Assembly: GCF_023055435.1 (NCBI RefSeq)
Contig: NW_025963813.1
Span: forward strand, 27,590,001 to 27,654,000
Length of the DNA stretch: 64,000 nucleotides
Reading direction: 5' to 3'
Source of the DNA: Haliotis rufescens
Lineage: Eukaryota
In this document: positions 3,103-55,822 of the stretch, in pieces
How the letters are laid out: the number at the start of each line of letters is the position of its first letter
Position numbering within the stretch: position 1 is the stretch's first letter
Notes under the pieces: model-generated
What the model saw: the letters and a program-made list of their open reading frames with translations, nothing else
The model's database searches: none
Told to the model about the DNA's origin: nothing
Program-made: the position numbers and the translations under genes

Positions 3103-3134
3103 ATATGTATTAAAATATGGATCGAGTGTCGAAC

Positions 3135-3640: not shown

Positions 3641-4877
3641 AAAGGTATTTATTCAACATCTGTTTCTCACTGTAGTGGACAGCATCAAACACACAGCGAT
3701 GAATTAGGATTCCATACACTACACAGAGATCATTTATGTATTTACTTATTTACAATATTCAAAATATATGCCTGCCACATAAGATAGAATAAGTACCTAC
3801 CTTGCCAGTGAAGTCGATCTGGAATATATGTGACGTGACTGTTTCAGCAGCTTGTACATCCAGGAGAATATGACTCATAAGATTTACAAACTGTCATTTC
3901 CTTCATCGTTCGAAATAAAAGCATATCCTATTGCGCGGTAAACATGTCACCGACCCCCTTCTTTTGCACCTCTCGCGCGTTCAAAGTGACTGACGCTCCG
4001 TCATGCGTACCCAGAACCAGTCGCGAAGATACGCAGTCGCTGCCGCTACAAGGGGGTTTATCAGTGTCCGTTGTGTTTGTTTGGTGGAGTTGCATAGGAC
4101 GGAACACTGGGTTATACTGTTATATATGAACGCCTTTGTGTGGTATTCAAAACGACGAATAATATATTACATTTTATGTGATATTGTGAATTGAAAGCGT
4201 TGTATATTCTGTGGATGTTTATTCTACCCAGTCAGTCCCTCTTCCGCACCCCGCTAGTCCACTCCATCAACTGCCCCCCCCCCCCCCCCCCCCCCCCCCT
4301 GGCTTGTGACTCATATTAGGCATGTCAAATATTTGTTTTGAATATGAGAAAGGTACTTTTAAAGTAATTGCCATTAATTCATCAACCATGTGCGTTCGTG
4401 AATACAGTGATTCATCAATAAACCAGATAACTTCAGATTAACGAATAAAAGCTACCAAGTAAACAGGTCAGATACAGAGACTCCAAATTAAATATGTTAA
4501 AAGCGAAACATTCTAATGGCTGTATTACTTCATTAATACACTGGTTAATATTTGAGGTTTATTCGTGAAGTTTGCTTTGATCGAACAAAGTCTTTCCCAA
4601 GCTCACTAAATCATCCTTTGTGCAAACAACATATGCACATACGCTATCCTCCGTTGTTTCTAGAACGTGCATCTCTCCTTTGTCTGCTCTGTCTCCATCC
4701 CTCGTTCAGACTTACTTTCTCTCCTCCCGAGGAAATGGTTGGTCCTGTGGTCTGGAGCACTGAACGTTGCATCACACTTTCATACACATATACACATGGC
4801 TATTGTTGTTAATGTTAATGCCAAATTGAATGGTGAATGTTGGCCTTGGGAGGCCCAACGGTCCATCGTCGTGTTAG

Positions 4878-5186
4878 TTCTCTCTCTCTATCTCCCCCTC
4901 TCCTTCTCTCTTTCTCGCTCTCTCCACTCTATCTCCCCCTCTCTCTCTTTCGCCCTCTCTCTCGCTCTCCCCATTCCCTAACTCCCTTCTCTCTCTCTCC
5001 TCTCACTCTCACTCGCTATTTCAATTATCTATCTCCCTTCTCTCTTTCTCTCTCTATCCTCTCGCTCTCCACCCTCTATATGTCCCTTCTCTCTCTCCCG
5101 CTCTCTTTCCTCTCGCTCTCTTTCGCGCTGTCCACTCTCTCTCCCCTTTAATAGCTCTCTTCTCGCTTTCACATGCTCTCTATCTC

Positions 5187-5228
<42 letters not shown>

Positions 5229-5412
5229 CAAATGACTTAGTTCTCTTCGGTAACATGATCTGTCTCTCTCCACTCTCTATACCCCCTTCTCTCCCCTCTT
5301 TCGCCCTCTCTTTCTCTCTCTATTTCTCTCTCTTTCTCCTCACGCTCTCTCTCTCTTCCCTCTCCACCCTCCATCTCCCTTATATCTCTCTCGCTCTCCT
5401 TACACTCGCTCT
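4878..5412. repeat. Pyrimidine-rich (CT)n low-complexity tract
   Basis: Almost pure C/T on the + strand; an expanded homologue lies at 9962-11234. Confidence 0.95.
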
Positions 5413-5490
5413 AGACGTTATCATTTCGTACGTATGCAGACATGTGTCCTACTTTTTGTTCGGCACAAGACAATCCTATATCGTGACAAG

Positions 5491-5500
5491 GTATATAAGG
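5491..5500 (+). promoter_or_regulatory. Candidate TATA box of sulfatase copy 1
   Basis: GTATATAAG about 75 bp upstream of the ATG; conserved upstream of copy 2 (~11503-11511). Confidence 0.4.
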
Positions 5501-5570
5501 TGGTCTTGTTTGACTGTAACCTTAAACCTGTCACACAATTAAGTCGTCCAACGACAGAAAAGACGCAAAC

Positions 5571-7091
5571 ATGGAGCTTGGAATATATGTCGTCTGCTTC
5601 ATCTCCTGCGTCAGCGCCCGGATGAACGTCTTGTTCCTGGTCGCCGATGACCTGCGTCCAGAGCTGCCCATGTACAATGGCTTCTTCCTTCCATCTCAAG
5701 TTCATCCACTAATCCACGTCCCGAATCTAGAAGGCCTGGCCAGTAAAAGCATGGTCTTCAAGAGGGCATATACCCAGCAGGCTCTATGCTCCCCGAGCCG
5801 TACCTCCCTGCTGACTGGGCGCCGTCCTGACACCACCCACGTGTATGACATTAACACCTACTTTAGAGACTCTGCCGGCAACTTCACGACCATTCCCCAG
5901 TTCTTCAAGAACCACGGCTACCACAGCATTGGAGCTGGTAAAATATTCCACCCGGGCAAGGCTTCAGGAGGAAATGATCCTCTATCGTGGTCTGAGACAT
6001 ATTATGATGACTATCAACCCAGTAATTACGGGTCAAGTTGGGAAGCAGTACCGGATAATCTTTTGGACAGCCACAATGCCCTGCAGGACACGATGCTAGC
6101 CGACCACGCAGTGCAAGTCATTAAGGACATCGCCCAAAAGGCGAACAATGGCGAGAATTTCTTCCTGGCAGTTGGGTTCCACAAGCCCCATTTGCCTTTC
6201 CAATTCCCAGCTCGCTTTCTGGATTATTACCCAGAAGACTCCATCGATCTTCCACCCAACCCACACGCTCCTGACGGCATGCCTAATATTGCCTGGAGTT
6301 CATATAGTGAACTTAGGGAGTACGCTGACATAGCCCGACTGAATGCATCCGGCAACCCAAACACGACCTTGCCTGACCAGGTGGTTAAACAACTACGCAG
6401 AGCCTACTACAGCGCTGTAAGCTTCATGGACTTTGAACTCGGGAGGGTTCTAGATGAACTGGAGAATCAGGGTCTAGCTGACAACACGATAGTGTCATTT
6501 TGTGGCGATCATGGCTGGCAGTTGGGAGAACATGGGGAATGGTGCAAACAGACCAATTTTGACATCGCCACCCACTCGCCTCTTATGATCCGCGTCCCAG
6601 GGATGACGGACCATGGGATGAGCACAACAAAGCTGACAGAGTTTGTAGACCTGTTCCCAACTCTAGTAGAAGCAGCAGGTCTTCCCACACTGCCTACGTG
6701 TCAAGTAGACTCGTCCTCAACTCACGCCTGCACAGAAGGAAGGAGTCTAGTTCCTCTGCTGCAGCACCCAAATCTGCCCTCGTGGAAAACCGCAGCCTTC
6801 TCGCAGTACCCACGAGTGTATAACAACACGTCAGCCATGGGCTACACGATCACCACGGCCAGGTATCGCTACACTGAATGGGTGACGTTCCTCAGCAAGC
6901 CCCACTACATGCCTCAGTGGGACCAGCTTCATGGAGTGGAGCTGTACGACCATCTGGCTGATCCTGAGGAGAATCACAACCTCGCGCACAATGCTGCCCA
7001 ACAAGGACTTCGCAGCCGGTTGAGTGGGCAACTACATGCTGGATGGAGAGCCGAGATGACGGATGGTCATGGCAGACCCATCGTAGGTTGA
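5571..7091 (+). CDS. IDS: Iduronate-2-sulfatase-like formylglycine-dependent sulfatase, intronless, secreted (copy 1, 506 aa)
   Basis: Signal-peptide-like N-terminus; NVLFLVADDLRP, CSPSRTSLLTGRRPD (CxPxR), GKIFH, GFHKPHLP, GDHGWQLGEHGEWCK, ELYD..DP.E..N; uninterrupted ORF; ATTAAA just after the stop. Symbol means IDS-like, orthology not shown. Confidence 0.93.
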   Translation: MELGIYVVCFISCVSARMNVLFLVADDLRPELPMYNGFFLPSQVHPLIHVPNLEGLASKSMVFKRAYTQQALCSPSRTSLLTGRRPDTTHVYDINTYFRDSAGNFTTIPQFFKNHGYHSIGAGKIFHPGKASGGNDPLSWSETYYDDYQPSNYGSSWEAVPDNLLDSHNALQDTMLADHAVQVIKDIAQKANNGENFFLAVGFHKPHLPFQFPARFLDYYPEDSIDLPPNPHAPDGMPNIAWSSYSELREYADIARLNASGNPNTTLPDQVVKQLRRAYYSAVSFMDFELGRVLDELENQGLADNTIVSFCGDHGWQLGEHGEWCKQTNFDIATHSPLMIRVPGMTDHGMSTTKLTEFVDLFPTLVEAAGLPTLPTCQVDSSSTHACTEGRSLVPLLQHPNLPSWKTAAFSQYPRVYNNTSAMGYTITTARYRYTEWVTFLSKPHYMPQWDQLHGVELYDHLADPEENHNLAHNAAQQGLRSRLSGQLHAGWRAEMTDGHGRPIVG

Positions 7092-7212
7092 ACGGTATTG
7101 TATTAAATCTGTTCATTTTAGAAATCACTTATTTTTGACATCACTGACATCGAAAATGTAATTTCGAGCATGGTTATTACAAAACTATCTGAATCTCGAA
7201 TCTCGAATCAGC

Positions 7213-7222
7213 GTGTGTGTGC

Positions 7223-7295
<73 letters not shown>

Positions 7296-7300
7296 TGTGT
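7213..7300. repeat. (GT)n microsatellite
   Basis: About 40 GT units; much shorter and interrupted in unit B (13217-13262). Confidence 0.95.
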
Positions 7301-7548
7301 CCCTGCCACGTCATACCAAAAAACGTTATAATGTGTCTAAATGGGATATCCATGTTAAACTGTGGCATGGTGTCTCAGTGGGCAAGCGCTATAAAACCTG
7401 CATAAGTCCGGACTGGTTCAAGTAGCAACAGACACGTGCATGCACGTCCCTATGTTAGTGTAACACTATTGAACACGACGTTTAACACCACACCTCATTT
7501 ATTACTGCCAGCACCATACCTGTGCTCGTGGATTTCACTCAAGTTATG

Positions 7549-7713
7549 GGGCAGACGGGTAGCCTAGTGGTTAAAGCATTCGCTCGTCACGTCCGGGACC
7601 CGGGTTCGATTCCTGACAAAGGTGCAATGTGTCAACCCCATTTCTGGTGTACCCCGCCGTGGTACTGCTGGAATATTGCTAAAAGCGCGGAAAACCCAAC
7701 TGACTCACTCACT
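7549..7713 (+). mobile_element. SINE family B copy
   Basis: GGGCAGACGGGTAGCCTAGTGGTTAAAGC...GGTTCGATTCC...ACTCACTCAC; duplicated at ~13480-13645. Confidence 0.85.
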
Positions 7714-7915
7714 TAATCAATCAAGTGTTACATGACAAAGACTTGCATCACTTCGGGTCTCCCACATCAAAATGTCACATCATGATATAACTTAACTACT
7801 GTTCAAAGCCCCATCAATCCAAATTCACTCACTCACTTCTTTCAATGGCATCACTCACTCACTCACGCATGTCCTTCTACTACTAATATAGAAAAACTGT
7901 GAAACCAGTTTCAGT

Positions 7916-8059
7916 TATTTATTACTCGAAAGTTACCCAATAATAGACGGTACATGTTGAGTGGTCAATTCATGCCTCCATCCTGCGTGAAGACGATGGC
8001 TGAGCTTGACCACCAGGTCTTTGTGGGCAGGGTCATGAACCAAGTTGATGTTCTCTTGT
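7916..8059 (-). pseudogene. C-terminal fragment of a convergent sulfatase paralogue
   Basis: Encodes QENINLVHDPAHKDLVVKLSHRLHAGWRHEL... and matches 13816-13960. About 0.9 kb present in unit B (13961-14896) is missing here. Confidence 0.8.
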
Positions 8060-8221
8060 GGCGTTGATAAAAGCGTATCTTGTATTTTATGAAACTAATG
8101 TGTGTTTATAACCAAGAATTAGGTTCACTCATTGTACTAATGTGGAGATTCGAACTCGGATCTTGAGCATGACGAGCCAACGATTTAAGCCATAGTAAAA
8201 ACAGAAATAATTTAAGATCGC

Positions 8222-8803
8222 TGCAATCTCATTTAAATAAAATCTTTGTTAACGCTATCGCTAAACAAAGATCTGAGGACATCACGGGTCACGGGTCACG
8301 TCAGGACGATCTTTCATCCGACAAATCAAAGCGTCGCTTATCAGATGAAAGTGACGTTTGGAAAACGTTTTCTTATCATGCAACCTCGAAAACGTGAACA
8401 CCGGGGATTCCGAAGGACAGTAACGGTCCGTACGACTGATTCCTTCAAACATTTGAATAGAGGAGGCGTTGCACAGTACCTGGGATTCACTGCCATACAA
8501 TCTCAACCATATATTTGACATTTCGGAATGTTCGTTTGTTCAGTTTTCCAAATTTTAATTGAAAACTGTGTCAACATATTTTTCAAGCGAAGTGCGAAAT
8601 GCAAGTCGCCAGGTTGAAGCGAGTGCCGTAAAGCTCGAGAAACCTGCTTTCTAATTGGCTGATGTTGACTTCTTGTTTGTCATTTCAGTGGTTGGTCAAA
8701 GTTCGCGAAAGGTCATTCTGACGTGACCCGTAATGGGATGACCTCAGATCTTTGTTAAGTGGCAGCGAGAACTTAGATCTGAATTTCATGAGATTTAGAT
8801 TGC
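8222..8803. mobile_element. MITE-like element with ~80-bp imperfect TIRs
   Basis: Left GCAATCTCA...AACAAAGATCTGAGG...GGGTCACGTCAG is inverted relative to right CTGACGTGACCC...CCTCAGATCTTTGTT...GAGATTTAGATTGC. Copy at 15092-20930 is split by the Harbinger; a TIR fragment lies at 55775-55816. Confidence 0.7.
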
Positions 8804-9769
8804 TGTAATAATTTCTGATCGTTTTATATATCAGTTGTATGGCATAATGAGTCAGCAACTACTAAAGTCAGCACGACGGTCAAGCGGCACGACAACATGG
8901 CGGCGTATCTTGGCCAATGGTTTGCAATATCACAGTCTCTGTGGTCTTGGAAAGTGATAAGATGTACAGTTAAATACAGTATATACTGTCACGCGAGGCT
9001 GGTCTCGTTTCTTGCAGCGTTGGAACCATTATCTATAGGGTATCTGGATCAGGTATAGTTTTTAACAATAATGGTAGACATGTAATAAAGTGTGACTTTG
9101 TTGCGAATATCGACAAATTCAGAGAGAGAAAAATTCCTAACATTCGTAGGAAGTAATGCCCAGGTGAGGAGTCCTGGTGAGGTGGGTGAGTCTCGGAACA
9201 CACCAAGGTCAGGCCTTGAACACAACAAGGACCACAACCTGTTCTCAACTGTATAGTCACACATTTGCGTTTCTTCTTTAGCTTATATGTTGTGACATAC
9301 AAATGTAACATATCGCAAACTGCTCTATGACCACTTTGCCTGAGCGTCCCGGCTTACTTCAGTTATATCACTGCACCCTGTCTAAGGGACGTAACTCAGC
9401 ACATCGAATATAAATTACCATTTTGTCTATGCTTCTATTTTGCAATGTAAAAGTACTACATACGGAAAGAAAAGATGCTTATGAACAGTATTAAGGTGTT
9501 TGGAATTTCTAGGATATATTTAAATTATAATGTCAACAATTTAAGGCTTGTCACCTTCTTATCTCTACCACAAAAGAACAGGTACATTCAAAATACCCTA
9601 CACTTACCCTCTAACATTTCAACCTTGATGCACGGTGTTGTTTGCAATTAGGCATGCAAAGCTCCTGCATCCATGGTCAAGTTCATGGTTTACTACAGCA
9701 GTAAGATATAGTGTTCTATTGCTGTAATCTATATTGCAAGTTTAGCAGTTCGAGTGAACAAGGTTTGGG

Positions 9770-9908
9770 AGTGAGTAACTTTTAGCAATATTCCAGCAAG
9801 ATTCATGACCGTGGACACCAGAAAAGGGCTCCACACAGTGTACTGTGGGAAATCGAACCAGGGTTTTTAGTATGACGAGCGTACGCTTTAACCACTAGGC
9901 TACCCCCT
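9770..9908 (-). mobile_element. SINE family B copy (duplicate at ~21890-22050)
   Basis: Reverse complement of head GGTAGCCTAGTGGTTAAAGCG...GGTTCGATTTCC and of the GCTGGAATATTGCTAAAAG tail. Confidence 0.8.
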
Positions 9909-10914
9909 TTTTGACTGTTAAAATACCCATGACCACATTGTGAAACCAAATGTCGTGTTAGTTTTCTCTCTCTATCTCCCCCTCTCCTTCTCTCTCTCTC
10001 CACTCTCTCTCCCCCTCTCTCTCTATCACCCTCTCTCTCGCTCTCCCCATTCCCTAACTCCCTTCTCTCTCTCGCTCTCTCTCCTCTCACTCTCACTCGC
10101 TATTTCAATTATCTATCTCCCTTCTCTTTCTCTCTCACACACCTCTCGCCCTCTCTTGCTCTCCACCCTATATCTCCCTTTTCTCTCTCTCCACACACAC
10201 ACTCTCTCTCGCTCTCTCCACTCTCTCTCCCCCTCTCTCTCTATCTCCCCCCTCTCCTTCTCTCTTTCTCGCTCTCTCCACTCTCTCTCCCCCTCTCTCT
10301 CTATCACCCTCTCTCTCGCCCTCCCCATTCCCTAACTCCCTTCTCTCTCTCGCTCTCTCTCCTCTCACTCTCACTCGCTATTTCAATTATCTATCTCCCT
10401 TCTCTTTCTCTCTCACACACCTCTCGCCCTCTCTCGCTCTCCACCCTATATCTCCCTTTTCTCTCTCTCCACACACACACTCTCTCTCGCTCTCTCCACT
10501 CTCTTTCTCCAAATCTCTCTCTTTCTCTCTCCCCTCTCTCTCACTCTCACTTTATCTCCTTCATTCTCTATCGCTCTCTCTCGCTCTCCTCATTCTCTAA
10601 CTCCCTTCTCTCCCTCGCTCTCTCTCCTCTCACTCTCTCTCGCACTATTTCCATTCTCTATCTCCCTTCTCTCTTTCTCTCTCTCCTCTCGCTCTCTCGC
10701 TCTCCACCCTCTATATGTCCCTTCTCTCTCTCCCGCTATTTCCATTCTCTATCTCCCTTCTCTCTTTCTCTCTCTCTCCTCTCGCTGACTCGCTCTCCAC
10801 CCTCTATATGTCCCTTCTCTCTCTCCAGCTCTATTTCCTCTCGCTCTCTTTCGCGCTGTCCACTCTGTCTCCCCTTCAATAGCTCTCTTCTCGCTTTCAC
10901 ACGCTCTCTATCTC

Positions 10915-10948
<34 letters not shown>

Positions 10949-11192
10949 CAAATGACTTAGTTCTCTTCGGTAACAGGATCTGTCTCTCTCCCTTCTCTCT
11001 CTCCACTCTCTATCCCCTTCTCTCCCCTCTTTCGCCCTCTCTTTCTCTCTCTATTTCTCTCTCTTTCTCCTCACGCTCTCTCTCTCTACCTCTCCACCCT
11101 CCATCTCCCTTATATCTCTCTCGCTCTCCTTCCACTCGCTCTATTTCGCGCTCTCCACTCTTTCAGCCCCTTTTATCTGTTCCTTCTCGCTC

Positions 11193-11238
<46 letters not shown>

Positions 11239-11562
11239 GACTTCTTGGTTGGGAGCATTTGAAGCGAACTATATAAAACAATCAGTCAATTATCATTGCA
11301 AAACAATAATATATTTTAGTTTGAGCTCATCAAAGTTAGTCAAATAAGATAATATCTGAGGAATCAAACATATTCTAAATAATCTCCTAACCTAATAACT
11401 GACTTAAATGACCTTATAACTGAAGACGTTATCATTTCGTACGTATGCAGACATGTGTCCTACGTTTTTGTTCGGCACAAGACAATCCTATATCGTGACA
11501 AGGTATATAAGATGGTCTTGTTTGACTGAAACACAAGTTGTAACGACAGAAAAGACGCAAAC

Positions 11563-13083
11563 ATGGAGCTTGGAATATATGTCGTCTGCTTCATCTCCTG
11601 CGTCAGCGCCCGAATGAACGTCTTGTTCCTGTGCGCCGATGACCTGCGTCCAGAACTGCCCATGTATAATGGCTTCTACCGTCCATCTCAAGTCCATCCA
11701 CCAATCCACGTCCCGAATCTAGAAGGCCTCGCCAGTAAAAGCATGGTCTTCAAGAGGGCATATACCCAGCAGGCTCTATGCTCCCCGAGCCGTACCTCCC
11801 TGCTGACTGGGCGCCGTCCCGACACCACCCACGTGTATGACCTTCGCACCTACTTTAGAGACTCTGCCGGCAACTTCACGACCATTCCCCAGTTCTTCAA
11901 GAACCACGGCTACCACAGCATTGGAGCTGGTAAAATATTCCACCCGGGCGTGGGTTCAGGAGGAAATGATCCTGTATCGTGGTCTGAGACATATTATGAT
12001 GACTATCAACCATATGATTACAGGACAAGTTGGGAAGCAGTACCGGATAATCTTTTGGACAGCCACAATGCCCTGCAGGACACGATGCTAGCCGACCACG
12101 CAGTGCAAGTCATTAAGGACATCGCCCAAAAGGCAAAGAATGGCGAGAATTTCTTCCTGGCAGTTGGGTTCCACAGGCCCCATTTGCCTTTCCAATTTCC
12201 AGCTCGCTTTCTGGATTATTACCCAGAAGACTCCATCGATCTTCCACCCAACCCACAAGCTCCTGACGGCATGCCTGAAATTGCCTGGTATTCATATAAT
12301 GAACTTAGGAGCTACGCTGACATAGCCCGACTGAATGCATCCGGCAACCCAAACACGACCTTGCCTGACCAGGTGGTTAAACAACTACGCAGAGCTTACT
12401 ACAGCGCTGTTAGCTTCATGGACTTTGAACTCGGGAGGGTTCTAGATGAACTGGAGAATCAGGGTCTAGCTGACAACACGATAGTGTCATTTTTCGGCGA
12501 TCATGGCTGGCAGTTGGGAGAACATGGGGAATGGGGCAAACAGACCAATTTTGACATTGCCACCCACTCGCCTCTTATGATCCGCGTCCCAGGGATGACG
12601 GACCATGGGATGAGCACAACAAAGCTGACAGAGTTTGTAGACCTGTTCCCAACTCTAGTAGAAGCAGCAGGTCTTCCCACACTGCCTACGTGTCAAGTAG
12701 ACTCGTCCTCAACTCACGCCTGCACAGAAGGAAGGAGTCTAGTTCCTCTGCTGCAGCACCCAAATCTGCCCTCGTGGAAGACCGCAGCCTTCTCGCAGTA
12801 CCCACGAGTGTATAACAACACGTCAGCCATGGGCTACGCGATCACCACGTGGAGGTATCGCTACACTGAATGGGTGACGTTCCTCAGCATGCCCCACTAC
12901 ATGCCTCAGTGGGACCAGCTTCATGGAGTGGAGCTGTACGACCATCTGGCTGATCCTGAGGAGAATCACAACCTCGCGCTCAATGCTGCCCAACAAGGAC
13001 TTCGCAGCCGGTTGAGTGGGCAACTACATGCTGGATGGAGAGCCGAGATGACGGATGGTCATGGCAGACCCATCGTAGGTTGA
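11563..13083 (+). CDS. IDS: Iduronate-2-sulfatase-like sulfatase, intronless, secreted (copy 2, 506 aa)
   Basis: Same motifs as copy 1 (DD, CSPSR, GKIFH, FHRPH, GDHG, WGK); about 26 amino-acid differences counted by eye. Confidence 0.93.
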   Translation: MELGIYVVCFISCVSARMNVLFLCADDLRPELPMYNGFYRPSQVHPPIHVPNLEGLASKSMVFKRAYTQQALCSPSRTSLLTGRRPDTTHVYDLRTYFRDSAGNFTTIPQFFKNHGYHSIGAGKIFHPGVGSGGNDPVSWSETYYDDYQPYDYRTSWEAVPDNLLDSHNALQDTMLADHAVQVIKDIAQKAKNGENFFLAVGFHRPHLPFQFPARFLDYYPEDSIDLPPNPQAPDGMPEIAWYSYNELRSYADIARLNASGNPNTTLPDQVVKQLRRAYYSAVSFMDFELGRVLDELENQGLADNTIVSFFGDHGWQLGEHGEWGKQTNFDIATHSPLMIRVPGMTDHGMSTTKLTEFVDLFPTLVEAAGLPTLPTCQVDSSSTHACTEGRSLVPLLQHPNLPSWKTAAFSQYPRVYNNTSAMGYAITTWRYRYTEWVTFLSMPHYMPQWDQLHGVELYDHLADPEENHNLALNAAQQGLRSRLSGQLHAGWRAEMTDGHGRPIVG

Positions 13084-13815
13084 ACGGTATTGTATTAAAT
13101 CTGTTCATTTGAGAAATCCCTTATTTTTGTGTTATTATTATTTCATCACTGACATTGAAAATGTAATTTCGAGCATGGTTATTACAAAACTATCTGAATC
13201 TACAATCTCGAATCAGCGTGTGTGTGCTTGTGTGTGCTTGTGTGTGCTTGTGTGTGCTTGTCTACGTGGGATATCCATGTTAAACTGTGGCATGGTGTCT
13301 CATGATCAGTTGGCAAGCGCTATAAAACCTGCATAAGTCCGGACTGATTCAAGTAGCAACAGACACGTACATGCACGTCCCTATGTTAGTGTAACACTAT
13401 TGAATACGACGTTTAACACCTCACCTCATTTATTACTGCCAGCATCATACCTGTGCTCGTGGATTTCACTCAAGGTATGGGGCGGACGGGTAGCCTAGTG
13501 ATTAAAGCATTCGCTTGTCACGCCGCGGACCCGGGTTCGATTCCTGACAAAGGTACAATGTGTCAACCCCATTTCTGGTGTACCCCGCCGTGGTACTGCT
13601 GGAGTATTGCTAAAAGCGCGGAAAACCCAACTGACTCACTCACTCAATCAATCAAGTGTTTCACGACAAAGACCTGCATCACTTCGGGTCTCCCATATCA
13701 AAATGTCACACCATGATATAACTTAACTACTGTTCAAAGCGCCATTAATCCAAACTTACTCACTCACGCATGTCTTTCTACTACTAATATAGAAAAACTG
13801 TGAAACCAGTTTCAG

Positions 13816-14445
13816 TTATTTATTACTCGAACGTTTCCCAATAATAGACGGTACATGTTGAGTGGTCAATTCATGCCTCCATCCTGCGTGAAGACGATGG
13901 CTGAGCTTGACCACCAGGTCTTTGTGGGCAGGGTCATGAACCAAGTTGATGTTCTCTTGTGGATCCTGATAATGGTCGTACAGCTCCGCACCAGAAGACA
14001 CTGACCACTTGGGTTTGTAATGAGTAGCATCAAGTCCAACTCACTCGGTGTAGCGATAAAGACTGGTCGTCATCGAGTAACCCATCAGCTTGTGGCGACC
14101 ACCGGAGTGTCTTGGATATTGGAAAAAAGGCAGCCTTCTTCCAATTATCAGTTTTGGGCTGCTTGATCAAAGGGAGGAAGCTCTGTCCTTCTGTGCACAC
14201 GTCCACCTTGGAGGAATCTTCAGGACAGACGTGAAGAGACGGCAGACCAGCTGCCTCAACCAGTGTAGGGAACAGGTCCACAAACTCCACAAGCTCTTCT
14301 GTCGGTATTCCTTGGTCGGTGAGTCCGGGAATATGTATCATCATAGGGGCATGGGTAGCTATGTCGAAGTTGGTGTGTTTGGTCCACAACCCGTGTTCAC
14401 CTAACTGCCATCCATGGTCCCCAAAGAAGGATATGATTGTGTCAC
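13816..14445 (-). pseudogene. 3' ~40% of a divergent IDS-like paralogue, frameshifted
   Basis: TIISFFGDHGWQLGEHGLWTKHTNFDIATHAP...WKKAAF, frameshift in the A-run at ~14123-14128, then ELYDHYQDPQENINL...IIGKRSSNK*. Confidence 0.88.
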
Positions 14446-15825
14446 ATCTGCCACAAGAAATAATACATTTTTCCTTTTGCAATGGACGTGTGCACTTACT
14501 AGACTCAGCACAACCGTCAAGCGGTGCCACAACATGGCTGCCTTTTTTGGTGAATATTTTTCACTATCACAGACGTGGTGGACTGGGAAGGAGATAAGAC
14601 ATACATCTGTACTATGTCACCATGTCAACCTAGTTTCTTGCAGCCTTGGAACCATTATCTATAGTATATATAGATCATGTATATTTTGTACAATATGTAT
14701 GATAGATATGAAATATAATGCAACACTATTTTATATGAGCGAATACTCGGGAAGAGATTTACACTGCTTTAAGCAATAATCCTGTCACATCAAGGCGTGG
14801 GGCACCAAGAATGAGCTTGACGCATTATCCAAAGTCTTTTGCATGACGAGGAATCCCTTTTTACAAGGCAACCAACGTCTTGTATTATATATGAAGGCGT
14901 TGATAAAAGCGTATGTTATAATTTATGAAACTAATGCGTGTATATGACAGATTTTGGCAACATGCAAGCAAGTGAGATAACCAAGAATTAGGTTCACTCA
15001 TTGTACTAATGTGGAGATTCGAACTCGGATCTTGAGCATGACGAGCTAACGATTTAAGCCATAGTAAAAACAGAAATAATTTAAGATCGCTGCAATCTCA
15101 TTAAAATCAGATCTTTGTTCACGCTATCGCTAAACAAAGATCTGAGGACATCCCATCACGGGTCACGTCAGGACGATCTTTCATCCGACAAATCAAAGCG
15201 TTGCTGATCAGATGAAAGTGACGTTTGGAAAGCGTTTTCTTATCATGCAACCTCGGAAACGTGAACACCGGGGATTCCGAAGGACAGTTACGGTCCGTAC
15301 GACTGATTTCTTCAAACATTTGAATAGAGGAGGCGTTGCACAGTACCTGGGATTCACTGCCCTACAATCTCAACCATATACTTGACATCTCGGAATGTTC
15401 GTTTGTTCAGTTTTCCAAATTTTAATTGAAAACTGTGTCAACATATTTTTCAAGCGAAGTGTGAAATGCAAGTCGCCAGGTTGAAGCGAGTGCCGTAAAG
15501 CTCGAGAAACCTGCTTTCTAATTGGCTGATGTTGACTTCTTGTTTGTCATTTCAGTGGTTGGTCAAAGTTCGCGAAAGGTCATTCCGACGTGACCCGTAA
15601 TGGGATGACCTCAGGGGCGGTATTCACAAAGCTTCTTAGAATTTTCTTAAGCCTTAAGAATTCTTAAATCCACAAAGAATTCTTAGTTTCCCTAACAACC
15701 AACTTAAGTTTTAAGAAATTCCTTAAGTCATATTCACAGACCTTATCAGTGCTTAGTTCTTTGCTTAAGTTTAAGATACTTCATGAGCTTACTTAGTCCT
15801 TAAGAATTTTCTTAAGACATCTAAT

Positions 15826-17474
15826 ATGGCTGCCATAGGTATTGTACAAACCACCGCTAGACGAGATGTACTGCAAATATATTCTGACAAAGAACTAATC
15901 AGAAGATACAGGTTAAACAAAAGTGGTATTGAATATGTGACTGGGTTAATTGCTGATAAAATATGTCCTAGCACCTCTCGTTCTCATGCCATGACAGGAA
16001 CTGAAAAGGTTGTAGCAACGCTACGTTATTTCGCTACAGGCAAAATGCAATTATGCAACGGGGATGACTTGGGTCTTTCCCAATCGTCGGTCAGTCGGGC
16101 GATAGAGCAGACAGTGTCAGTTTTGTCCGACGCCGAGATGGCATCCCAGTTCATTCATTTTCCGACAACACAGGGTTGCATTCGTCGGAATCAAGCGGCA
16201 TTTTACAACATCGCTCACTTCCCTGGCGTTGTTGGAGTGATTGATGGATCGCATGTGCAGATTATTGCTCCATCTGTCGACGAACCCTCATATGTAAATC
16301 GTAAACAGTACCACAGTATAAACACACAGATTGTTTTCGATCCAAACAATATGATAATTGACCTTGTTGCGAAGTGGCCAGGCTCGACACACGACTCGAG
16401 AATACTCACCGAAAGCGGGCTTCATATTTTATTTGAACGACACATCGACACATCGTGCCAACCGGATGTCACCTACTTGGAGATAGTGGCTACCCCTGCA
16501 GAAACTGGCTGCTTACGCCGTACCTGAGACCAAATCCTGGCTCACAGACATCCTACAATCGGTAATATTCTCCTACATTCGTGAACACGCAATCGTAATG
16601 AGAGTTATCCCCCTTCAAAATTACAAAAGTGAGAATTGGTTGTTGTGAAAAGTTTAAGTGTTCAAATGTGAAAAGATATTTGGTTGTGCATATATATATC
16701 GAAAGTGAACATTAAGAAATTACCCATATAAAAATATGAAATATATTTAATGACAGATAAGCAAGAAAAACATTTATGTTTAAAAAAACATAAAAAATAT
16801 TCTAAAAATATATAGGTCAATGTGAATCACTTTTTACAAAGTATAAAAAAGCCTAAATATTTTAGTCATTACATCAAGTGACTAAAACATCTGTCCATTC
16901 ACTTAACAGACTGGATAATCGTTATTGGAGTTCAAAAGGGCTTAGACACTTCACAATAATTATTGACTACTCATGTTCAATCACTGAGTGATGAAATAGA
17001 GCATAATAATGTTTGGATTTCATTATTATTATAAATAAAATGGACAGATTCATACTCAATTTGTAAGATAACTGAAACAAATTTGTGGAAATTCATTATG
17101 GAACACACTGACTGTAATACACACATATCTGTAAATTGTTGTGTGTGTGTGTGTGTATTAGACGGGTTCTGAACTTGTTTTCCAGAGCACATAAAAGGAC
17201 CCGGAGTGTTGTGGAAAGAGGTATAGGCCAGCTCAAGAGACGGTTCCATGTCTTACATGGAGAGATTCGCCTTTCTCCAATTAAGGCATGTAAAATCATA
17301 ACATGTTGTGGAATTCTGCATAACATCTGCAAGATAAGGAATATCCCATTACCTGACAGTGAGTCCAATGATCCGGATGAAGACATGACAGCCCCCTACA
17401 GAGAGAGAGATATTCCTGGCCACAACTTGACCTTCAGGAATCACTTTGCAAACACTCACTTTCAGTGTGAGTGA
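15826..17474 (+). pseudogene. Harbinger (HARBI1-like) DDE transposase, 2 exons (15826-16561, 17186-17474), one frameshift
   Basis: GVIDGSHV, NRKQYHSINTQ, WPGSTHDSRI, LLGDSGY (shifted frame), RSVVERGIGQLKRRF; GT..AG intron 16562-17185; 8-bp duplication at 16438-16453. Confidence 0.9.
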
Positions 17475-18738
17475 TAATTCTTCTTTTAATTGAGTAAAAC
17501 CACTATTTAATGAATTATATTCAACAACAAAAAATTTCAGTAAAAAAACAGTTTATTTTAACAAATAAGAGTACAGAAAAAGAATCAGTTGATAAGGTTT
17601 ACCTTTTTCAAAAATAATTCACAAACAATTTATTACAACTGGTTAATGAATTTAATATTGTTACTATAATTGTTAAATATTATATATAATTTGTGAATCT
17701 CAAGGATTCTTTAAAAAATGCTCAAGGGTTCAATTGCAATGCATTTTCCCAGTTTACTTACCTGGTATATGAAAATACATTTATCTTCTTGTAAGAAACA
17801 TCTTATGACAGACAGATTTTATTGTAGTAAATTCAAAAGAACGATAGTACATAAAGTCTTCAATACATAATCATTGTTGAAAGTTAAACACGTTTAAATT
17901 CTTCCTGCATTTCTTATACATATTTCAGAAATTTAGCAAATACATGTTGTAATACATATCACAATTTCTTGGAGTAACTGGCCCTGTTTGTCATATCAAA
18001 TGCAGTGACACAGAATAAGATATTCATCCTCACTGGCCACTGGCCATAGATAACAATACTGTTTAGCACTGATAAACATACCTGTCATGTGATAGTCTCA
18101 ACAGACGGAGCAAGTACTTTCTACAATTAGTGACAGGCACCCCATAATGGACATCTTCCAGTTTCGCGATAAGTAACACAATATGATGACTAGTACCCTA
18201 TTCCTAAAATAGATTAACAAAATCTTTTGTGGATCATTTTGACATTATCCTGAACTGTTTGCCTCCTTGTTGTGGGAACAATATTCTTATAAAAATATGA
18301 AAGGCATTCAACACAGATACACAATACTGTTCAATGAAATACTTAACTGGAAAAAGTGTGTTACAAGCTTAGTCAGCTAAGGTCTTACATTTTATTGATT
18401 TTATCCATATCATTGGCACCCAAATACGAAGATTTTGAACCCTGAAATGCAATGTTGCTGTAAGCAGAAGTAAAACATGAGAATATGGTTGAATCAAAAC
18501 ACATTCAAATTATGACATGTTATCAATGTATCTATTGATAGAAATGACATTTCACACACTGTAACCTCACACATTAACCAATATTATATTATTGAAGATA
18601 AATTTAAACTGAAAAGGAGCATGGTTCTGTCAAAATAGGTTTCAAATCTTTCTCTTCAAAGAATACATTACATTTTGAAAACATGGTAAACTCTCTGGCC
18701 TTAAAAAGTGATATGCATACATGGTATAGATATAAATT

Positions 18739-20520
18739 TTATTCATTCTGCAGTTTTTGAAGTTGAATTTCCATAATTTTCTTCTTAAGACTTAAACAAT
18801 CAGTTTCAAGTTTAAGTTTCTTGTAGAGTAGCTCATCATAGCTTTCCCCCAACAGGAAAGTTTGTCGCGAGGACTTTGGCTCCTGGACTGTGCTCCATCC
18901 TGCTGGTCTCTTCATGGATCCCTGTGCTGAGGAGGCGGTGTCTGGCACTGATGGTTCCGGCTGTAAAGGCACAGACACTGTTGATGCAGTAGGGACAGCT
19001 CCTCCCATGGCCTGGAGTGTCTGCAAGTCAAGTGCTGCCATGTCACTGTATTCACTGTATATAAATGGACAGAAAATGTTTTAGTCATTGTTGTTTTTGA
19101 GTATCTATGTATCTGAATAGGGATACAAATATGAGGTAATAATCAGTTTCAAACACATGGAGTATCAATAATTTTTAGTGATCCCTTCAAATACTTTTCA
19201 CAACAATCTTGCACTTTGCAGGATTTGTTTAGGAAGATAATCAAGATTGGTTATTCTCTGTTATTGATGTGTTATATAATTTAATATGGATGCTTTTATA
19301 GTAATGTGTATGACCACTTATACACAGGAGGTACTTTGCTAACATAATAGTTTTTCATAGCAAATCATTTAAGTAGAGTTATGCTATATGAATGATTATA
19401 CTCACTACAAGGGCAAGGGAATACATCAGTAGAATTACCTTGCATTAACTGTGTCAGAAAGGCTGACCACCTGTAGGAGGGATGTGTCCATGGCTGATGG
19501 GATTCCAGATATGGATACATTATCCTGCCCCAGAATATCCCACACTACCTCGGATGTGGCACTCAAAGTAGGGCATGGTGATGGACCACCACCTGTCGAA
19601 GTGAAAATTATTTTTACTTACATCAGAAAAATTGAGAATCAATGTGTTAAATAATACTAAAGTAACAATTGAAGACAGCCTAAGAATTGTATATACATAT
19701 GTAAATTCAAACTTTTAAGAATTGATTATACACTGTATGGGACACCAAAATGTACTTAAAGACACCAAATACAAATATTTTTACTTGAAAGCTAGAATAA
19801 ACAATAATTGTAACACATTAAGATTAAATGTATCTCAGATCTGGTGATTTATGCACTGTAAAACTACTATTACAGTTCAGTGTTGCAAAATGTGAACTAC
19901 AATAATTACCTGTGCTGATAACACCTTGCTTGTACCTTGCAATTTCTCCCCTGGCTTTACTTTGGATGTTATGCCATTTCTTTTCCACCTCCTCGGGGGC
20001 TCTGATGCATCCTATGATTTACATAAAAATATTCAATTCTCAACTGTGTAATGTAAATTTCAGAAATAAACGAATAGGTACTGGATGTGACACTGTAATA
20101 TAACTGATAACCTGTACAATAACATTTATTTTTTTCTTTCCCTGAAAATAAATTTTATGTTAAATAAAATATAGATCTTATACAATACAATCTAGTTCTA
20201 TCCAAAAAAATCCTTCCGATTTTATGTGCGTTGCTGCTGTGAAAATTTGCAAAATACTAAAATCTTGAATAACAATAGAATTTTGAACATTATTTGAATC
20301 TTAATATATTTCAATACCAAAAACTATCTTTATGGTCTGCCGTACCTGGAAAGGCTGCGTTGATCGTGTGGGTCAACTCCACCCACTTTTCCTTTTTCTT
20401 TTGAGCTGTCACGCCTGCCCCGAACTTTCCTAATAAAACCGCTTTGTTTTCGTCAACAAGTTTCGTCAGGAGCAGGTTTTGGTCCTCAGACCAGTTGGGT
20501 TTTCGCTTTTTGTCAGTCAT
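18739..20520 (-). CDS. Harbinger Myb/SANT-like DNA-binding protein, probably 4 exons (~20520-20346, ~20010-19910, ~19592-19439, ~19055-18739)
   Basis: RKPNWSEDQNLLL...KKKEKWVELTHTINA / RAPEEVEKKWHNIQSKAR..TG / GGPSP.. / C-terminal coiled coil; GT-AG boundaries plausible; convergent with the transposase. Confidence 0.82.
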
Positions 20521-22179
20521 GTTCGCTGGCTGCCGTCGATATTCCCGCCGATCGAAAATAGGTCGACTGCCAAAACTTTTTACTTTCGCGTTTTCAACAC
20601 TGAAGAGTCGTGTTTTGTTGCTATTTATAGATAAGGGAATGTCCAAAACGTCACTCGAAAGGTGTTAAGAATATTCTTAGTCAAAACTTTACATCCCAAG
20701 ATGCAACGGGGTAGACTAAGAAAACTCTTAGATATTATACTAATACTTTGCTAAGAATCATGCTTAGACTGTTTGTGAATTGATACTTAAGATTTTTTCT
20801 TAGCTAAGAATTTTTTAGAAAACTTAAGTCAATTTCTAAGAAAATTCTAAGAAGCTTTGTGAATACCGCCCCAGATCTTTGTTAAGTGGCAGCGAGAACT
20901 TAGATCTGAATTTCATGAGATTTAGATTGCTGTAATAATTTCTGATCGTTTTATATATCAGTTGTATGGCATAATGAGTCAGCAACTACTAGAGTCAGCA
21001 CGACGGTCAAGCGGCACGACAACATGGCGGCGTATCTTGGCCAATGGTTTGCAATATCACAGTCTCTGTGGTCTTGGAAAGTGATAAGATGTACAGTTAA
21101 ATACAGTATATACTGTCACGCGAGGCTGGTCTCGTTTCTTGCAGCGTTGGAACCATTATCTATAGGGTATCTGGATCAGGTATAGTTTTTAACAATAATG
21201 GTAGACATGTTATAAAGTGTGACTTTGTTGCGAATATCAACAAATTCAGAGAGAGAAAAGTTCCTAACATTCGTAGGAAGTAATGCCCAGGTGAGGAGTC
21301 CTGGTGAGGTGGGTGAGTCTCGGAACACACCAAGGTCAGGCCTTGAACACAACAAGGACCACAACCTGTTCTCAACTGTATAGTCACACATTTGCGTTTC
21401 TTCTTTAGATTATCTGTTGTGACATATATATATAACATATCGCAAACTGCTCTATGACCACTTTGCCTGAGCGTCCCGGGTTACTTCAGTTATATCACTG
21501 CACCCTGTCTAAGGGACGTAACTCGGCACATCGAATATAAATTACCATTTTGTCTATGCTTCTATTTTGCAATGTAAAAGTACTACATACGGAAAGAAAA
21601 GATGCTTATGAACAGTATTAAGGTGTTTGGAATTTCTAGGATATATTTAAATTATAATGTCAACACTTTAAGGCTTGTCACCTTATCTCTACCACAAAAG
21701 AACAGGTACATTCAAAATACCCTACACTTACCCTCTAACATTTCAACCTTGATGCACGGTGTTGTTTGCAATTAGGCATGCAAAGCTCCTGCATCCAAGG
21801 TCAAGTTCATGGCTTACTACAGCAGTCAGATATAGTGTTCTATTGCTGTAATCTATATTGCAAGTTTAGCAGTTCGAGTGAACATGGTTTGGGAGTGAGT
21901 AACTATACTGGTTTTCCGCCACTTTTAGCAATATTCCAGCAAGAGTCATGACCGTGGACACCAGAAAAGGGCTCCACACAGTGTACTGTAGGAAATCGAA
22001 CCAGGGTGTTTGGTATGACGAGCGTACGCTTTAACCACTAGGCTACCCACTTTTTGACTGTTAAAATACCCATGACCACACAGCGAAACCAATTGTCCTC
22101 TTCAGTTACAAATTCAAAAGTTCAGAATACACCTTTTAGCTAAACAGTCGCATATCTATGGTAGGACAAGCGAAATTCC

Positions 22180-26104: not shown

Positions 26105-27626
26105 ATGATGTTGAGGGTGACTCTTCTGCTGATGGCGGTGACTGCCGCCCTGGCTCGCATGAATGTGCTGTTTTTGGTGTCAGATGACATGAGACCTGAA
26201 CTCTCCATTTTTAAAGGAAAAGACTTCCCGAGTCCTGTCCATCCTCCGATACATTCACCCAACCTTGACGCCCTGGCACGAAGGAGTCTTCTGTTAAAGA
26301 GAGCCCATGTTCAGCAGGCTGTGTGTTCCCCGAGCAGATCATCTCTCCTCACAGGACGAAGACCGGATACTACCCATGTGTATGATTTGCAAGCTTATTG
26401 GAGAGTTGTGGGAGGGAACTTCACCACCATCCCTCAGTACTTTAAGGAGAACGGCTACAGAACCATTGGTTCCGGTAAGATATTTCACCCCGGACATGCC
26501 TCCAATTACAACGACCCCATATCCTGGACAGACCCATATTTTGAAGCAGGGGGACCGGCAAACGATTTTGTATACAAGGAACATGTGAGCTGGATGAATG
26601 TGCCAATGGATCTTCTAAAGAACAACTCCCTTCAAGACACCCAGAATGCTGACTTTGCCATTAAAATGATCAGAGAGGCTGCTCCCCAAGCCAGATCTGG
26701 AGAACGTCCTTTCTTCATTGCACAAGGTTTCCATAAGCCCCATCTTCCCTTTGTGGCAACAATGAGGTTCTTTGACATGTACCCCGAGTCGTCTATCAGT
26801 CTCCCAGCCAACCCATACGCTCCTGATAAGATGCCAGAAATATGCATGGTCTAATTACAATATGACAGAGCTTGGAAGATACGTTGACATTGCAAACTTA
26901 AATGCTTCTGGAGACATTAACTCCACACTCCCTAACGATGTTATCCTCAAATTGAGGAGAGCCTACTACAGCGCCCTCAGCTACACCGACTACGAGCTGG
27001 GACGAGTGGTCAAGGAACTGGAGAACCAAGGACTGGCCAACAACACAATCATCTCCTTCTGGGGCGATCACGGCTGGCAGCTTGGTGAACACGGTGAGTG
27101 GTGCAAACACACTGACTTTGAAATCGCCACCCACGCCCCTATGATGGTACATGTGCCGGGTCTCACTGACAACGGTATCATGACGGAAGAACTCACCGAG
27201 TTTGTGGATATGTTTCCTACTCTAGTAGAAGCTGCAGGTCTTCCTGCTCTTGACCTGTGTCCAGAAAACTCTACCAATGTCCTTCTTTGCACCGAAGGCA
27301 ATAGTTTGATACCTCTAATAACAAACCCAGCAAGTCCCAACTGGAAGAAGGCTGTGTTCTCCCAGTACCCTAGGAATGAAAGCAACGGTGATCAAATGGG
27401 CTACAGCATGACCACCGATCACTACAGATACACAGAGTGGGTCAAATTCAACTCACAACCCCTGTACAGGCCAGACTGGACCCAAGTGTTCGGTGTGGAG
27501 CTGTATGACCATTATCAGGATCCTGAGGAAAACAAGAACCTGGCGTATGATTCCGCCTACAGCGCCTTGGTGGCTCAACTCAGCAAACAGCTACATGCTG
27601 GCTGGAGGGCAGCTAGACCGAAGTAG
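26105..27626 (+). pseudogene. IDS: IDS-like sulfatase copy 3, full length with one +1 frameshift (~26841)
   Basis: ORFs 26105-26854 and 26772-27626 join into a complete sulfatase; CCAGAAATATGCATGG here vs CCAGAAATTGCATGG in copy 4; all catalytic motifs intact; AATAAA at ~27685. Confidence 0.88.
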
Positions 27627-50097: not shown

Positions 50098-51482
50098 ATG
50101 ATGTTGAGGGTGACTCTCCTGCTGCTGGCAGTGACTGCCGCCCTGGCGTGCATGAATGTGCTGTTTTTGGTGTCAGAAGACATGAGGCCTGAACTCTGTT
50201 TAATATGGAAAAGACTTCCCGAGTCCTGTCCATCCTCCGATACATTCACCCAACCTTGACGCCCTGGCACAAAGGAGTCTTCTGTTAAAGAGAGCCCATG
50301 TTCAGCAGGCTGTGTGTTCCCCAAGCAGATCATCTCTCCTCACAGTGTATGATTTGCAGGTTTACTGGAGAGTTGTGGGAGGGAACTTCACCACCATCCC
50401 TCAGTACTTTAAGGAGAACGGCTACAGAACCATTGGTTCCGGTAAGATATTTCACCCCGGACATGCCTCCAATTACAATGACCCCATATCCTGGACAGAC
50501 CCATATTTTGAGTCCGGAAAAGAAGAACAACTCACTTCGAGACACCCAGAATGCTGACTTTGCAATTAGAGAGGCTGCCCCTCAAGCAAGATCTGGAGAA
50601 CGTCCTTTCTTCATCGCCCAAGGACTCCATAAGCCCCATCTTCCCTTTGTGGCAACAATGAGGTTCTTTGACATGTACCCCGAGTCGTCTATCAGTCCCC
50701 CAGCTAACCCATATGCTCCTGATAAGATGCCAGAAATTGCATGGTATATTTATACAGAGCTCGGAAAATACGATGACATTGAGAAATTACATGTTTCTGG
50801 AGACATTAACTCCACCCTCCCTAACGATGTTATTCTCAGCATGAGAAGAGCCTACTACAGTGCCCTCAGCTACACCGACTACGAGCTGGGACGAGTGGTC
50901 AAGGAACTGGAGAACCAAGGACTAGCCAACAACACAATCATCTCCTTCTGGGGCGATCACGGCTGGCAGCTTGGTGAACACGGTGAGTGGTGCAAACACA
51001 CAGACTTTGAAATCTCCACCCACGCCCCTATGATGGTACATGTGCCGGGTCTCACTGACAATGGCATCGTGACGGAAGAACTCACTGAGTTTGTGGATAT
51101 GTTTTCAACTCTAGTAGAAGCTGCAGGTCTTCCTGCGCTTGTCCTGTGCCCAGAAAACTCTTCCAACGTTCTAGTCTGTTCCGAAGGCAACAGCTTGGTT
51201 CCTCTGATGAAAGATCCAGCAAGTCCTAACTGGAAGAAAACAGTCTTCTCACAGTACCCAAGGACCACAGCTAAATACAGATACACCGAGTGGGTGAAGT
51301 TCGACATGAAACCTCTCTATAAGCCGGACTGGAACAAGGTTTATTGTGTTGAGCTGTACGATCATATTAAGGACCCTGAGGAAAACTATAACCTGGCTTA
51401 TAATTCTGCTGAAAAGAAACTTGTATCTGAACTACGGAAAGAGCTGCATGCTGGATGGAGGGCTGCCAGACCAAGGACATGA
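50098..51482 (+). pseudogene. IDS-like sulfatase copy 4 (deletions and frameshifts)
   Basis: 5' part and upstream flank match copy 3; lacks GRRPDTTH and the segment after YPR; several frameshifts. Confidence 0.92.
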
Positions 51483-55745: not shown

Positions 55746-55822
55746 AACTTGGAATTTTTGAATTGGTTAAGAGAGCAATCTCATTAAAATCAGATCGAAG
55801 TTCTCGCTGCCGCTAATAAAAA

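Follow-up and report, generated by a model that had tools for sequence, protein, structure and literature searches.

Iduronate 2-sulfatase (IDS) is a single-copy, conserved enzyme. Its subfamily among the S1 sulfatases, S1_7, also includes bacterial sulfatases that act on algal glycans, a point of the original prediction for the locus described here that agrees with the account of the subfamily in PMC9825549. The characterised S1_7 enzymes other than IDS act on ulvan and kappa-carrageenan, as far as the sections of PMC9825549 and PMC9096561 devoted to them report: Formosa agariphila P18_S1_7 (FA22070, PDB 6HHM) is an endo-xylose-2-sulfate sulfatase active on ulvan, and Zobellia cgsB is a kappa-carrageenan 4-sulfatase. 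Here we describe a 64,000-nucleotide (nt) stretch of the abalone Haliotis rufescens (contig NW_025963813.1, positions 27,590,001 to 27,654,000, forward strand; hereafter the window) that carries two intact, intronless S1 sulfatase genes, copy 1 (5571..7091, + strand) and copy 2 (11563..13083, + strand), each encoding 506 amino acids (aa) and sharing 94.9% protein identity. The two genes are young tandem paralogues within a birth-and-death cluster of intronless S1_7-like sulfatases. Judging from sequence, they make a credible case of a real young pair with a small, positively selected class of codons biased to the loops of the cleft, in an animal clade distinct from IDS. Unlike IDS, the abalone genes are intronless, tandem and apparently diversifying.

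Positive selection on the binding sites of tandemly duplicated enzymes is a familiar pattern, also among herbivore sulfatases. The GSS1-3 genes of Plutella xylostella are, like the abalone copies, clustered duplicates in a herbivore, with distinct substrate spectra gained under positive selection according to PMC6501874. They differ in lying on the ARSB side of family S1 (as placed in the relevant part of PMC5066984) and in acting, as biochemically proven, on small defence metabolites, whereas the abalone genes are S1_7-like and their activity is predicted. The arylsulfatase B expansions of scallop and Aplysia are likewise mollusc duplicates, proposed to adapt the animals to diverse algae, and four of the duplicates were found in the scallop hepatopancreas proteome; unlike the abalone pair, these are old duplicates of ARSB (S1_2), and the section of PMC5159873 describing them contains no selection test. 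A literature search, made mostly without subscription journals and supplements, turned up no report of these abalone genes and none of selection in their clade. Within that search, what is new is the subfamily and the handle that it offers for specificity.

The (C/S)xPxR signature of S1 sulfatases, as given in PMC5066984, is represented in both copies by an identical CSPSR formylglycine motif at residues 73-77 (C73-R77; 5787..5801, + strand), equivalent to human IDS C84 and R88. The metal ligands and catalytic Lys and His residues D26, D27, R77, K124, H127, H207, D313, H314 and K326 are also in place (IDS D45, D46, R88, K135, H138, H229, D334, H335 and K347), and all ten catalytic or metal residues are shared with human IDS. 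Both copies match Pfam PF00884 (Sulfatase; E 1e-46 for copy 1) and PF16347 (SGSH_C) above cut-off, and the AlphaFold2 model (predicted local distance difference test score, pLDDT, 92.5) has the sulfatase fold with its C-terminal beta-sheet subdomain. Human IDS (PDB 5FQL, 6IOZ) is the best match among solved structures both in sequence (E 1e-102) and in fold (template-modelling score, TM, 0.84; 37-38% identity), and 6HHM is the third-best fold match (TM 0.77). The three best PDB matches by sequence and fold are all S1_7 members (219-348 bits versus 112 for the next subfamily); in the ESM Atlas, IDS and arylsulfatase K clusters appear at equal score.

The cleft residues of IDS, however, are not retained. 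IDS D269, R273, Y348 and N167 correspond to E247, Y251, Q327 and P150 in the abalone enzymes, and K479, whose loop is shorter there, has no clear equivalent; R273, Y348, N167 and K479 are the uronate-binding residues in the docking part of PMC5472762. The 131 other non-bacterial members of the clade mostly have E247, Y/F251, C325 and H/Q327, and 13 bacterial relatives as well as 6HHM share this E247/Y251/C325/H-Q327 signature, whereas IDS has D269/R273/A346/Y348. Thus 6HHM resembles the abalone clade at E247, Y251, C325 and, as in most of the clade, H327, although it is only 30% identical and copies 1 and 2 have Q327. The shared cleft residues are ancestral, and therefore argue against iduronate-2-sulfate without naming the substrate.

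In a tree of 148 sequences, two abalone families are sister groups (0.91) beside Gigantopelta, namely family A, to which copies 1 and 2 belong, and family B; limpets and bivalves have lineage-specific clusters. A second tree used 157 of 160 sequences, with 108 of 150 representatives aligned (those of 440-700 aa), and did not include human IDS itself; in it, nine unnamed IDS-type sequences, several with human IDS motifs, form a clade of their own (0.994) apart from the abalone genes. The best 120 of 7449 matches are 54-62% identical (copy 2 aside), the named ones being from molluscs, annelids and sponges. Bacterial relatives reach at most 46% identity among the best 80 of 591 confirmed loci (35-46%), and a recent bacterial transfer was rejected on this figure and on the long branch in the tree, which held 13 of the 80 loci. 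These comparisons suggest that the genes are probably not IDS orthologues and belong to a separate clade, ranging from sponges to molluscs, with the bacterial S1_7 cleft signature.

Family A, defined as a 90% cluster, has seven members (P0121, P0001 and P0122-P0126), all recorded from a 41.2-Mb contig; five are named, all as Haliotis rufescens 'iduronate 2-sulfatase-like'. Its stem is long (0.47, versus 0.29 for family B). Among the best 120 of 7449, where family-B genes of H. rubra, H. asinina and H. cracherodii do appear, these three species contribute no match above 62%, and yet family A is carried under a second species label in one sequencing run (X19, see below). Loss, an annotation gap or fast evolution are candidate explanations for these missing matches.

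Divergence of the two copies

Self-comparison of the window indicates a tandem duplication of a unit of about 5 kb. Unit 1 (4868..9963, no strand, limits approximate) contains, in order, a CT-rich repeat, the gene, a copy resembling a short interspersed element (SINE), an antisense sulfatase relic and intergenic DNA; unit 2 (9952..22107) has the same order of parts, its greater length being due to a more extensive antisense relic and to a 5.2-kb element inserted later. Outside the genes, 72 of 2583 aligned sites away from gaps differ between the units (2.8%; 2.1-4.5% by segment). Because this is close to the synonymous divergence (dS) of the genes, 3.6-4.2%, the pair is young.

The copies differ at 50 nucleotides in 39 codons, with 26 replacement and 13 silent changes; the original prediction, counting by eye, had about 26 replacements and about 11 silent changes, the latter too few. 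All seven multi-base codon changes that it had quoted are present (GTC>TGC, AAC>CGC, AAG>GTG, AGT>TAT twice, GAG>AGC and GCC>TGG), as are its eight motif changes (LVADD>LCADD, YDIN>YDLR, HPGKA>HPGVG, PSNYGS>PYDYRT, HKPH>HRPH, WSSYSELRE>WYSYNELRS, FCGDH>FFGDH and WCK>WGK), and the ten catalytic or metal residues are, as it had stated, identical between the copies. Its remark that a third copy differs at the same loops proved uninformative. Copy 3, a family-B sulfatase gene lying in two frames (26105..27626, + strand), differs from copy 1 throughout (61% DNA identity) and is frameshifted near 26843, and was therefore rejected as corroboration.

The changes are grouped beyond chance. Nine codons carry two or three differences, versus 1.6 expected (0 of 20,000 shuffles), and 10 of the 26 replacements adjoin another replacement, versus 2.5 expected (p=0.003; weaker at a distance of 3, p=0.061, or 5, p=0.044). 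Silent changes showed no clustering with replacements at 1-5 codons (p=0.30-0.68) and a weak trend at 10 codons (p=0.064). By branch, 10 changes fall on copy 1, 10 on copy 2, 2 are split and 4 affect both; the even 10/10 split is therefore not the picture of one decaying copy. As to cysteines, copy 1 has C311 and C325, and copy 2 has only C24 of the three positions 24, 311 and 325; positions 24 and 311, on two strands that end in metal ligands, may have been repacked together.

Five segments on the + strand stand out. These are a clade-specific insertion forming the variable loop 38-47 (5682..5711), whose codons 38 and 40 frequently fall into the fast class; the pair 94-95 (5850..5855; copy 2, 11842-11847), which aligns to IDS F105 and N106, residues that we take to belong to the cleft and that were kept out of the tested set; the loop 130-138 (5958..5984; copy 2, 11950-11976), which follows the catalytic K124 and H127; the loop 150-155 (6018..6035; copy 2, 12010-12027), beside the IDS N167 equivalent and with a 3-residue insertion in another paralogue; and the most variable segment, 239-250 (6285..6320; copy 2, 12277-12312), around E247 and Y251, the equivalents of IDS D269 and R273. 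In this last segment, nine nucleotide differences are packed into four replacement codons, and the eight codons between have none.

Human IDS residues were mapped through an HMMER alignment, using the ten catalytic or metal residues plus N167, H226, D269, R273, W337, Y348 and K479 (the list follows a section of PMC5472762; the K479 mapping onto the abalone copies is only approximate), and no further cleft residues were found in the corresponding sections of PMC13265633 and PMC7907806. Within four residues of the ten catalytic residues lie 6 of the 26 changes (p=0.11 under a uniform null, p=0.002 under a family-variability null), so that the proposal that the copies differ mainly next to catalytic residues is too strong as worded; with the cleft residues included (17 in all), 12 of the 26 lie within the same distance (p=0.002 uniform, 0.0001 variability-weighted). 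Judged by proximity along the sequence to residues named for human IDS, the changes thus appear to sit often on loops around the cleft, with the strongest signal seemingly on loops of the cleft rim rather than beside catalytic residues. Variable sites were enriched at the cleft (p<0.05) in family A, Patella and one Gigantopelta-type group, three of the 10 groups, and not in the H. rubra paralogues (p=0.18) or in a three-species orthologue set (p=0.86).

Codon site models (M1a/M2a) revealed a class of codons with dN/dS (omega) above 1 that survives the multi-hit, hot-codon and older-copy conversion tests described below. The original prediction had named a lack of such sites as a refutation, and that outcome was not obtained. 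Copies 1 and 2 were entered as DNA and two further family-A copies as protein with codon ambiguity. For the pair, the likelihood-ratio test statistic (LRT) was 34.3, with omega ~32 on 4.6% of codons, and it was 24.4 and 13.4 when relative multi-hit rates of 0.01 and 0.03 were allowed. The four full-length family-A proteins are 88-95% identical, and at four positions all four copies have different residues: 138 (L/V/S/A), 239 (N/E/H/D), 243 (S/Y/T/R) and 250 (E/S/H/G). Models of these four paralogues, with loop 148-155 of one paralogue masked, gave an LRT of 41-48 in all three topologies (22-28 with a multi-hit rate of 0.03), and sites 138, 243 and 250 exceeded 0.95 in six of six M2a runs. Across the pairwise and four-paralogue models, about 3-5% of codons have omega near 16-32.

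The sites that differ between copies 1 and 2 were also examined out of sample, by which circularity is avoided. In P0126 a third residue occurs at 5 of the 26 sites, versus 10 of 480 others (Fisher p=0.0005; p=0.006 after family-variability weighting), and in P0123, with the indel loop masked, at 8 of 22 versus 41 of 476. Five sites have at least four different residues among the six family-B paralogues of H. rubra, and three of these (130, 154 and 250) also differ between copies 1 and 2 (post hoc, p=0.008-0.022 with weighted nulls; 150-154 lies within an indel region). These six copies (P0003, P0131-P0135) form a burst in their own right, being 90-97% identical and all recorded from a 1.01-Mb contig; at position 130 they have five different residues.

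A number of observations weigh against diversifying selection at the cleft. Gene-wide dN/dS between the copies is 0.74-0.92 and, because replacement sites are about three times commoner, 26 versus 13 is no excess; the raw count was accordingly rejected as proof of selection, and the selection originally claimed is supported for a small class of sites and not for the gene as a whole. The site models were run in custom Python scripts, not PAML, and assume a single tree. Multi-nucleotide mutation is a known source of false positives in such tests, and with a free multi-hit rate the pairwise LRT falls to 9.0 (p=0.011). A hot-codon null, in which some codons mutate 26 times faster with omega at or below 1, is 3.4 log units worse than a model allowing omega above 1, a modest margin that is the weakest point of the two-sequence case. 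Moreover, no named residue lies near 14 of the 26 changes in the sequence, replacements are not significantly closer than silent changes to the 17-residue set (Fisher p=0.06-0.21), and positions 24 and 311 (core beta strands) and 430 (a hairpin) are not obviously part of the cleft. Finally, the changed sites are variable family-wide (mean entropy 2.18 versus 1.23), and the overlap of variable sites in nine other groups with the family-A sites rose above the weighted null in only 1 of 36 tests.

Weighing both sides, we consider it probable that diversifying selection has acted on the substrate specificity of copies 1 and 2. Each gene would encode a formylglycine- and Ca2+-dependent sulfatase with a signal peptide and the IDS fold, in which selection would repeatedly swap residues on the loops that surround the wide substrate groove (94-95, 130-138, 150-155 and 239-250), thereby adjusting the fit to different sulfated sugar chains and leaving the chemistry unchanged. 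Occasional short conversion could transfer a patch (130-131) between young copies. The likeliest substrates would be non-self sulfated glycans met in food, not iduronate-2-sulfate.

Both copies are intact and present in assemblies whose RNA status is a guess, and we regard them as a real, probably expressed pair. The listed contigs of runs X15 and X19 were considered, and contigs show presence, not tissue, level or absence. Both runs cover the coding region and little of the flanks, and in X19 a poly(A) loose end lies at 7127, just past a polyadenylation-signal-like hexamer (7102..7107, + strand; copy 2, 13094-13099). Run X15 has pieces identical to copy 1 and others whose counts fit copy 2: 13 differences from copy 1 over 6321-7051, as many as copy 2 has in that stretch, and, between 5855 and 6265, all 14 of the copy 2 differences along with two further silent changes. 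Run X19, which bears the second species label, has a piece with 0 differences to copy 1 over 193 nt and another with 10 differences, the copy 2 count, of which the four listed match. Run X24, which belongs to one study with X15, contains hardly any of the sequence words. Run X1 lists other paralogue types at 5952-6072 and 5633-5761, one with a 9-nt insertion behind 6027; at codon 138 the letters of both copy 1 and copy 2 are missing from its listed contigs, which cannot prove absence. This pattern is a hint of copy presence or absence between individuals.

Candidate substrates and alternative explanations

Among substrates of copies 1 and 2, algal polysaccharide is a plausible candidate, at somewhat less than an even chance, and microbial or host mucus glycans share the remaining probability. 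Fucoidan-sulfatase activity has been reported from limpet, scallop and the hepatopancreas of abalone, according to work cited in PMC6315715; the passage of this 2018 paper on the subject gives substrate specificity only for one semi-purified scallop preparation and states that no sequences are known. An alternative that we find doubtful but worth serious consideration accepts the selection and places its driver outside the diet, in remodelling of host mucus or matrix, stripping of microbial glycans or evasion of inhibitors by the loops, the copies possibly being balanced haplotype variants. The vent worm Alvinella has 35 PANTHER IDS family genes, possible members of the clade, which the authors link to thermal environment or symbiosis in the relevant part of PMC12403961. 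Clusters also occur in Gigantopelta, sponges, annelids and bivalves, and the Alvinella genes and the several copies in Gigantopelta, a vent snail, count against a purely algal reading; the codon 138 letters in run X1 (a matter of presence only) also favour the alternative. Against a non-dietary driver stand the ulvan and kappa-carrageenan activities of the characterised non-IDS enzymes of S1_7 and the fucoidan-sulfatase activities of abalone, limpet and scallop. This alternative shares the claim of selection with the reading preferred here and differs from it only in substrate.

Relaxed constraint after duplication, combined with clustered mutation, is unlikely. That is, tolerant surface loops would have drifted, and the multi-base codons would be single events or hot spots. 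Such drift would accord with the gene-wide omega, with the family-wide variability of the changed sites, with the 37-39% of sites that M2a places at omega 1 in five of six four-taxon runs and with the decay of many neighbouring relatives, and the drop of the LRT under a free multi-hit rate favours clustered mutation. However, the clustered-mutation null requires a multi-hit rate near 0.10, by arithmetic about 30% of mutations, whereas in the flanks the 72 differences include 4 adjacent pairs (chance alone would give about 2), versus 11 pairs among 50 in the gene, and there are about 2.2 multi-hit pseudo-codons per 506, versus 9 in the gene. Furthermore, 7 of the 11 adjacent pairs are at codon positions 1-2 (p=0.039), and four residues in four copies at four sites, as well as the out-of-sample result, require repeated independent hits.

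Gene conversion is very unlikely as the source of the pattern, whether patches were pasted from older paralogues or old copies were homogenised except at protected loops. Residues 130-131 group copy 2 with P0123 (the 5 other informative sites group copies 1 and 2), a 221-nt tract is identical (p=0.016), 10 of the 13 silent changes are within 10 codons of a replacement (p=0.064), and a run X19 contig is copy 1-like at 94, 138 and 148 but P0126-like at 188. Conversion from family-B copies was nevertheless rejected for the five in the window for lack of a shared tract: the longest at a copy 2 difference is 9 nt, a 17-nt tract falls at a silent copy 1 site, and third positions remain those of family A. 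Around the nine multi-hit codons, the 34.7 silent sites that lie no more than 3 codons away have changed only once, which also opposes older donors and old protected peaks; at dS 0.15 these are rejected for tracts of +/-3 (p=0.04) and +/-5 codons (p=0.004), though not of +/-1 or 2. Old homogenised copies are at odds with the match between flank divergence (2.1-4.5%) and dS (3.6-4.2%), and conversion among young copies redistributes existing variants and could not give each of four copies its own residue. Conversion had been named from the outset as a finding that would undo the case; tracts from older copies were not seen, but the patch at 130-131 looks like a short conversion between young paralogues, and such events among young copies probably also happen.

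That the pair is an assembly artefact, two alleles of one locus placed in tandem, is highly improbable: alleles in abalone could differ by as much as the flanks do (2-4%, with indels), an exact 959-base-pair (bp) tandem at 30417-32333 suggests local assembly slips and no contig compared bridges both units (only copy 1 was compared), but four distinct full-length and three partial types, all from a contig of that 41.2-Mb length, exceed two alleles, the second species label has both the copy 1-identical piece and the piece with the copy 2 count, and the site pattern would need selection even between alleles.

Gene features and surroundings

The N-terminus of copy 1 forms a hydrophobic helix at residues 2-14, and the copies are predicted to carry a signal peptide. 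A TATA-like box, of presumed function, is found 79 nt upstream of the copy 1 start codon (5492..5499, + strand; copy 2, 11504-11511).

The window is overall animal DNA rich in repeats, and contains five other sulfatase relics, about 60% identical to copy 1 and all frameshifted or partial. Apart from copy 3, these include a family-B relic at 50110..51482 (+ strand) with deletions, frameshifts and an altered metal-ligand codon, and two 3' fragments of family-B genes at 53450..54060 and 55800..56300 (- strand). The antisense relic of the units is a 3' fragment of a further sulfatase paralogue (13830..14450, - strand), of which a short remnant is left in unit 1 at 7936-8070. The 5.2-kb element is present only in unit 2 (15611-20875) and has 39-bp terminal inverted repeats and a DDE_Tnp_4 open reading frame (ORF; 15826-16527); it is presumably PIF/Harbinger-like, and its empty site is at about 8742-8747 in unit 1.

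A dispersed 150-bp repeat, which we assume to resemble an abalone SINE, occurs in copies 75-93% alike at 2952-3104, 7548-7721, 9779-9905, 13479-13652, 21893-22048, 24404-24571 and 51916-51991. At 30417-32333, the exact 959-bp head-to-tail duplication lies within a purine-rich repeat, and its 100% identity suggests an assembly slip. The AT-rich region 35000-46500, with many + strand ORFs, has a match to the Pox_A32 packaging ATPase (38200-38715, E 1e-7) and a weak, below-cut-off match to DNA polymerase B2 (45674-46426), and is probably a decayed Maverick/Polinton-like element. Between 59233 and 63947, both strands carry a series of ORFs 100-300 aa long, and the five of them tested gave no Pfam match.

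Meaning for S1_7 sulfatases

SulfAtlas, in its treatment of S1_7 in PMC9825549, calls the mixed specificities of the subfamily hard to rationalise. Two enzymes separated by 26 known replacements, of which four are at hypervariable positions, allow two questions to be tested, namely which residues set S1_7 specificity and whether seaweed glycans are desulfated by the host itself. In addition, many invertebrate 'IDS-like' genes are likely mis-annotated. A bolder idea, which we put forward tentatively as a possibility that we do not favour, is that the uncharacterised animal S1_7 clade, mislabelled 'iduronate 2-sulfatase-like', kept the bacterial-type cleft and consists of invertebrate endo-sulfatases for algal polysaccharides. 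These would be the genes behind the fucoidan-desulfating activity reported since 1967 from the digestive glands of abalone, limpet and scallop, and the copies would form a natural specificity series. If this is true, abalone would hold copies 5% apart, possibly polymorphic between individuals, that have been selected in step with the diversity of seaweed glycans.

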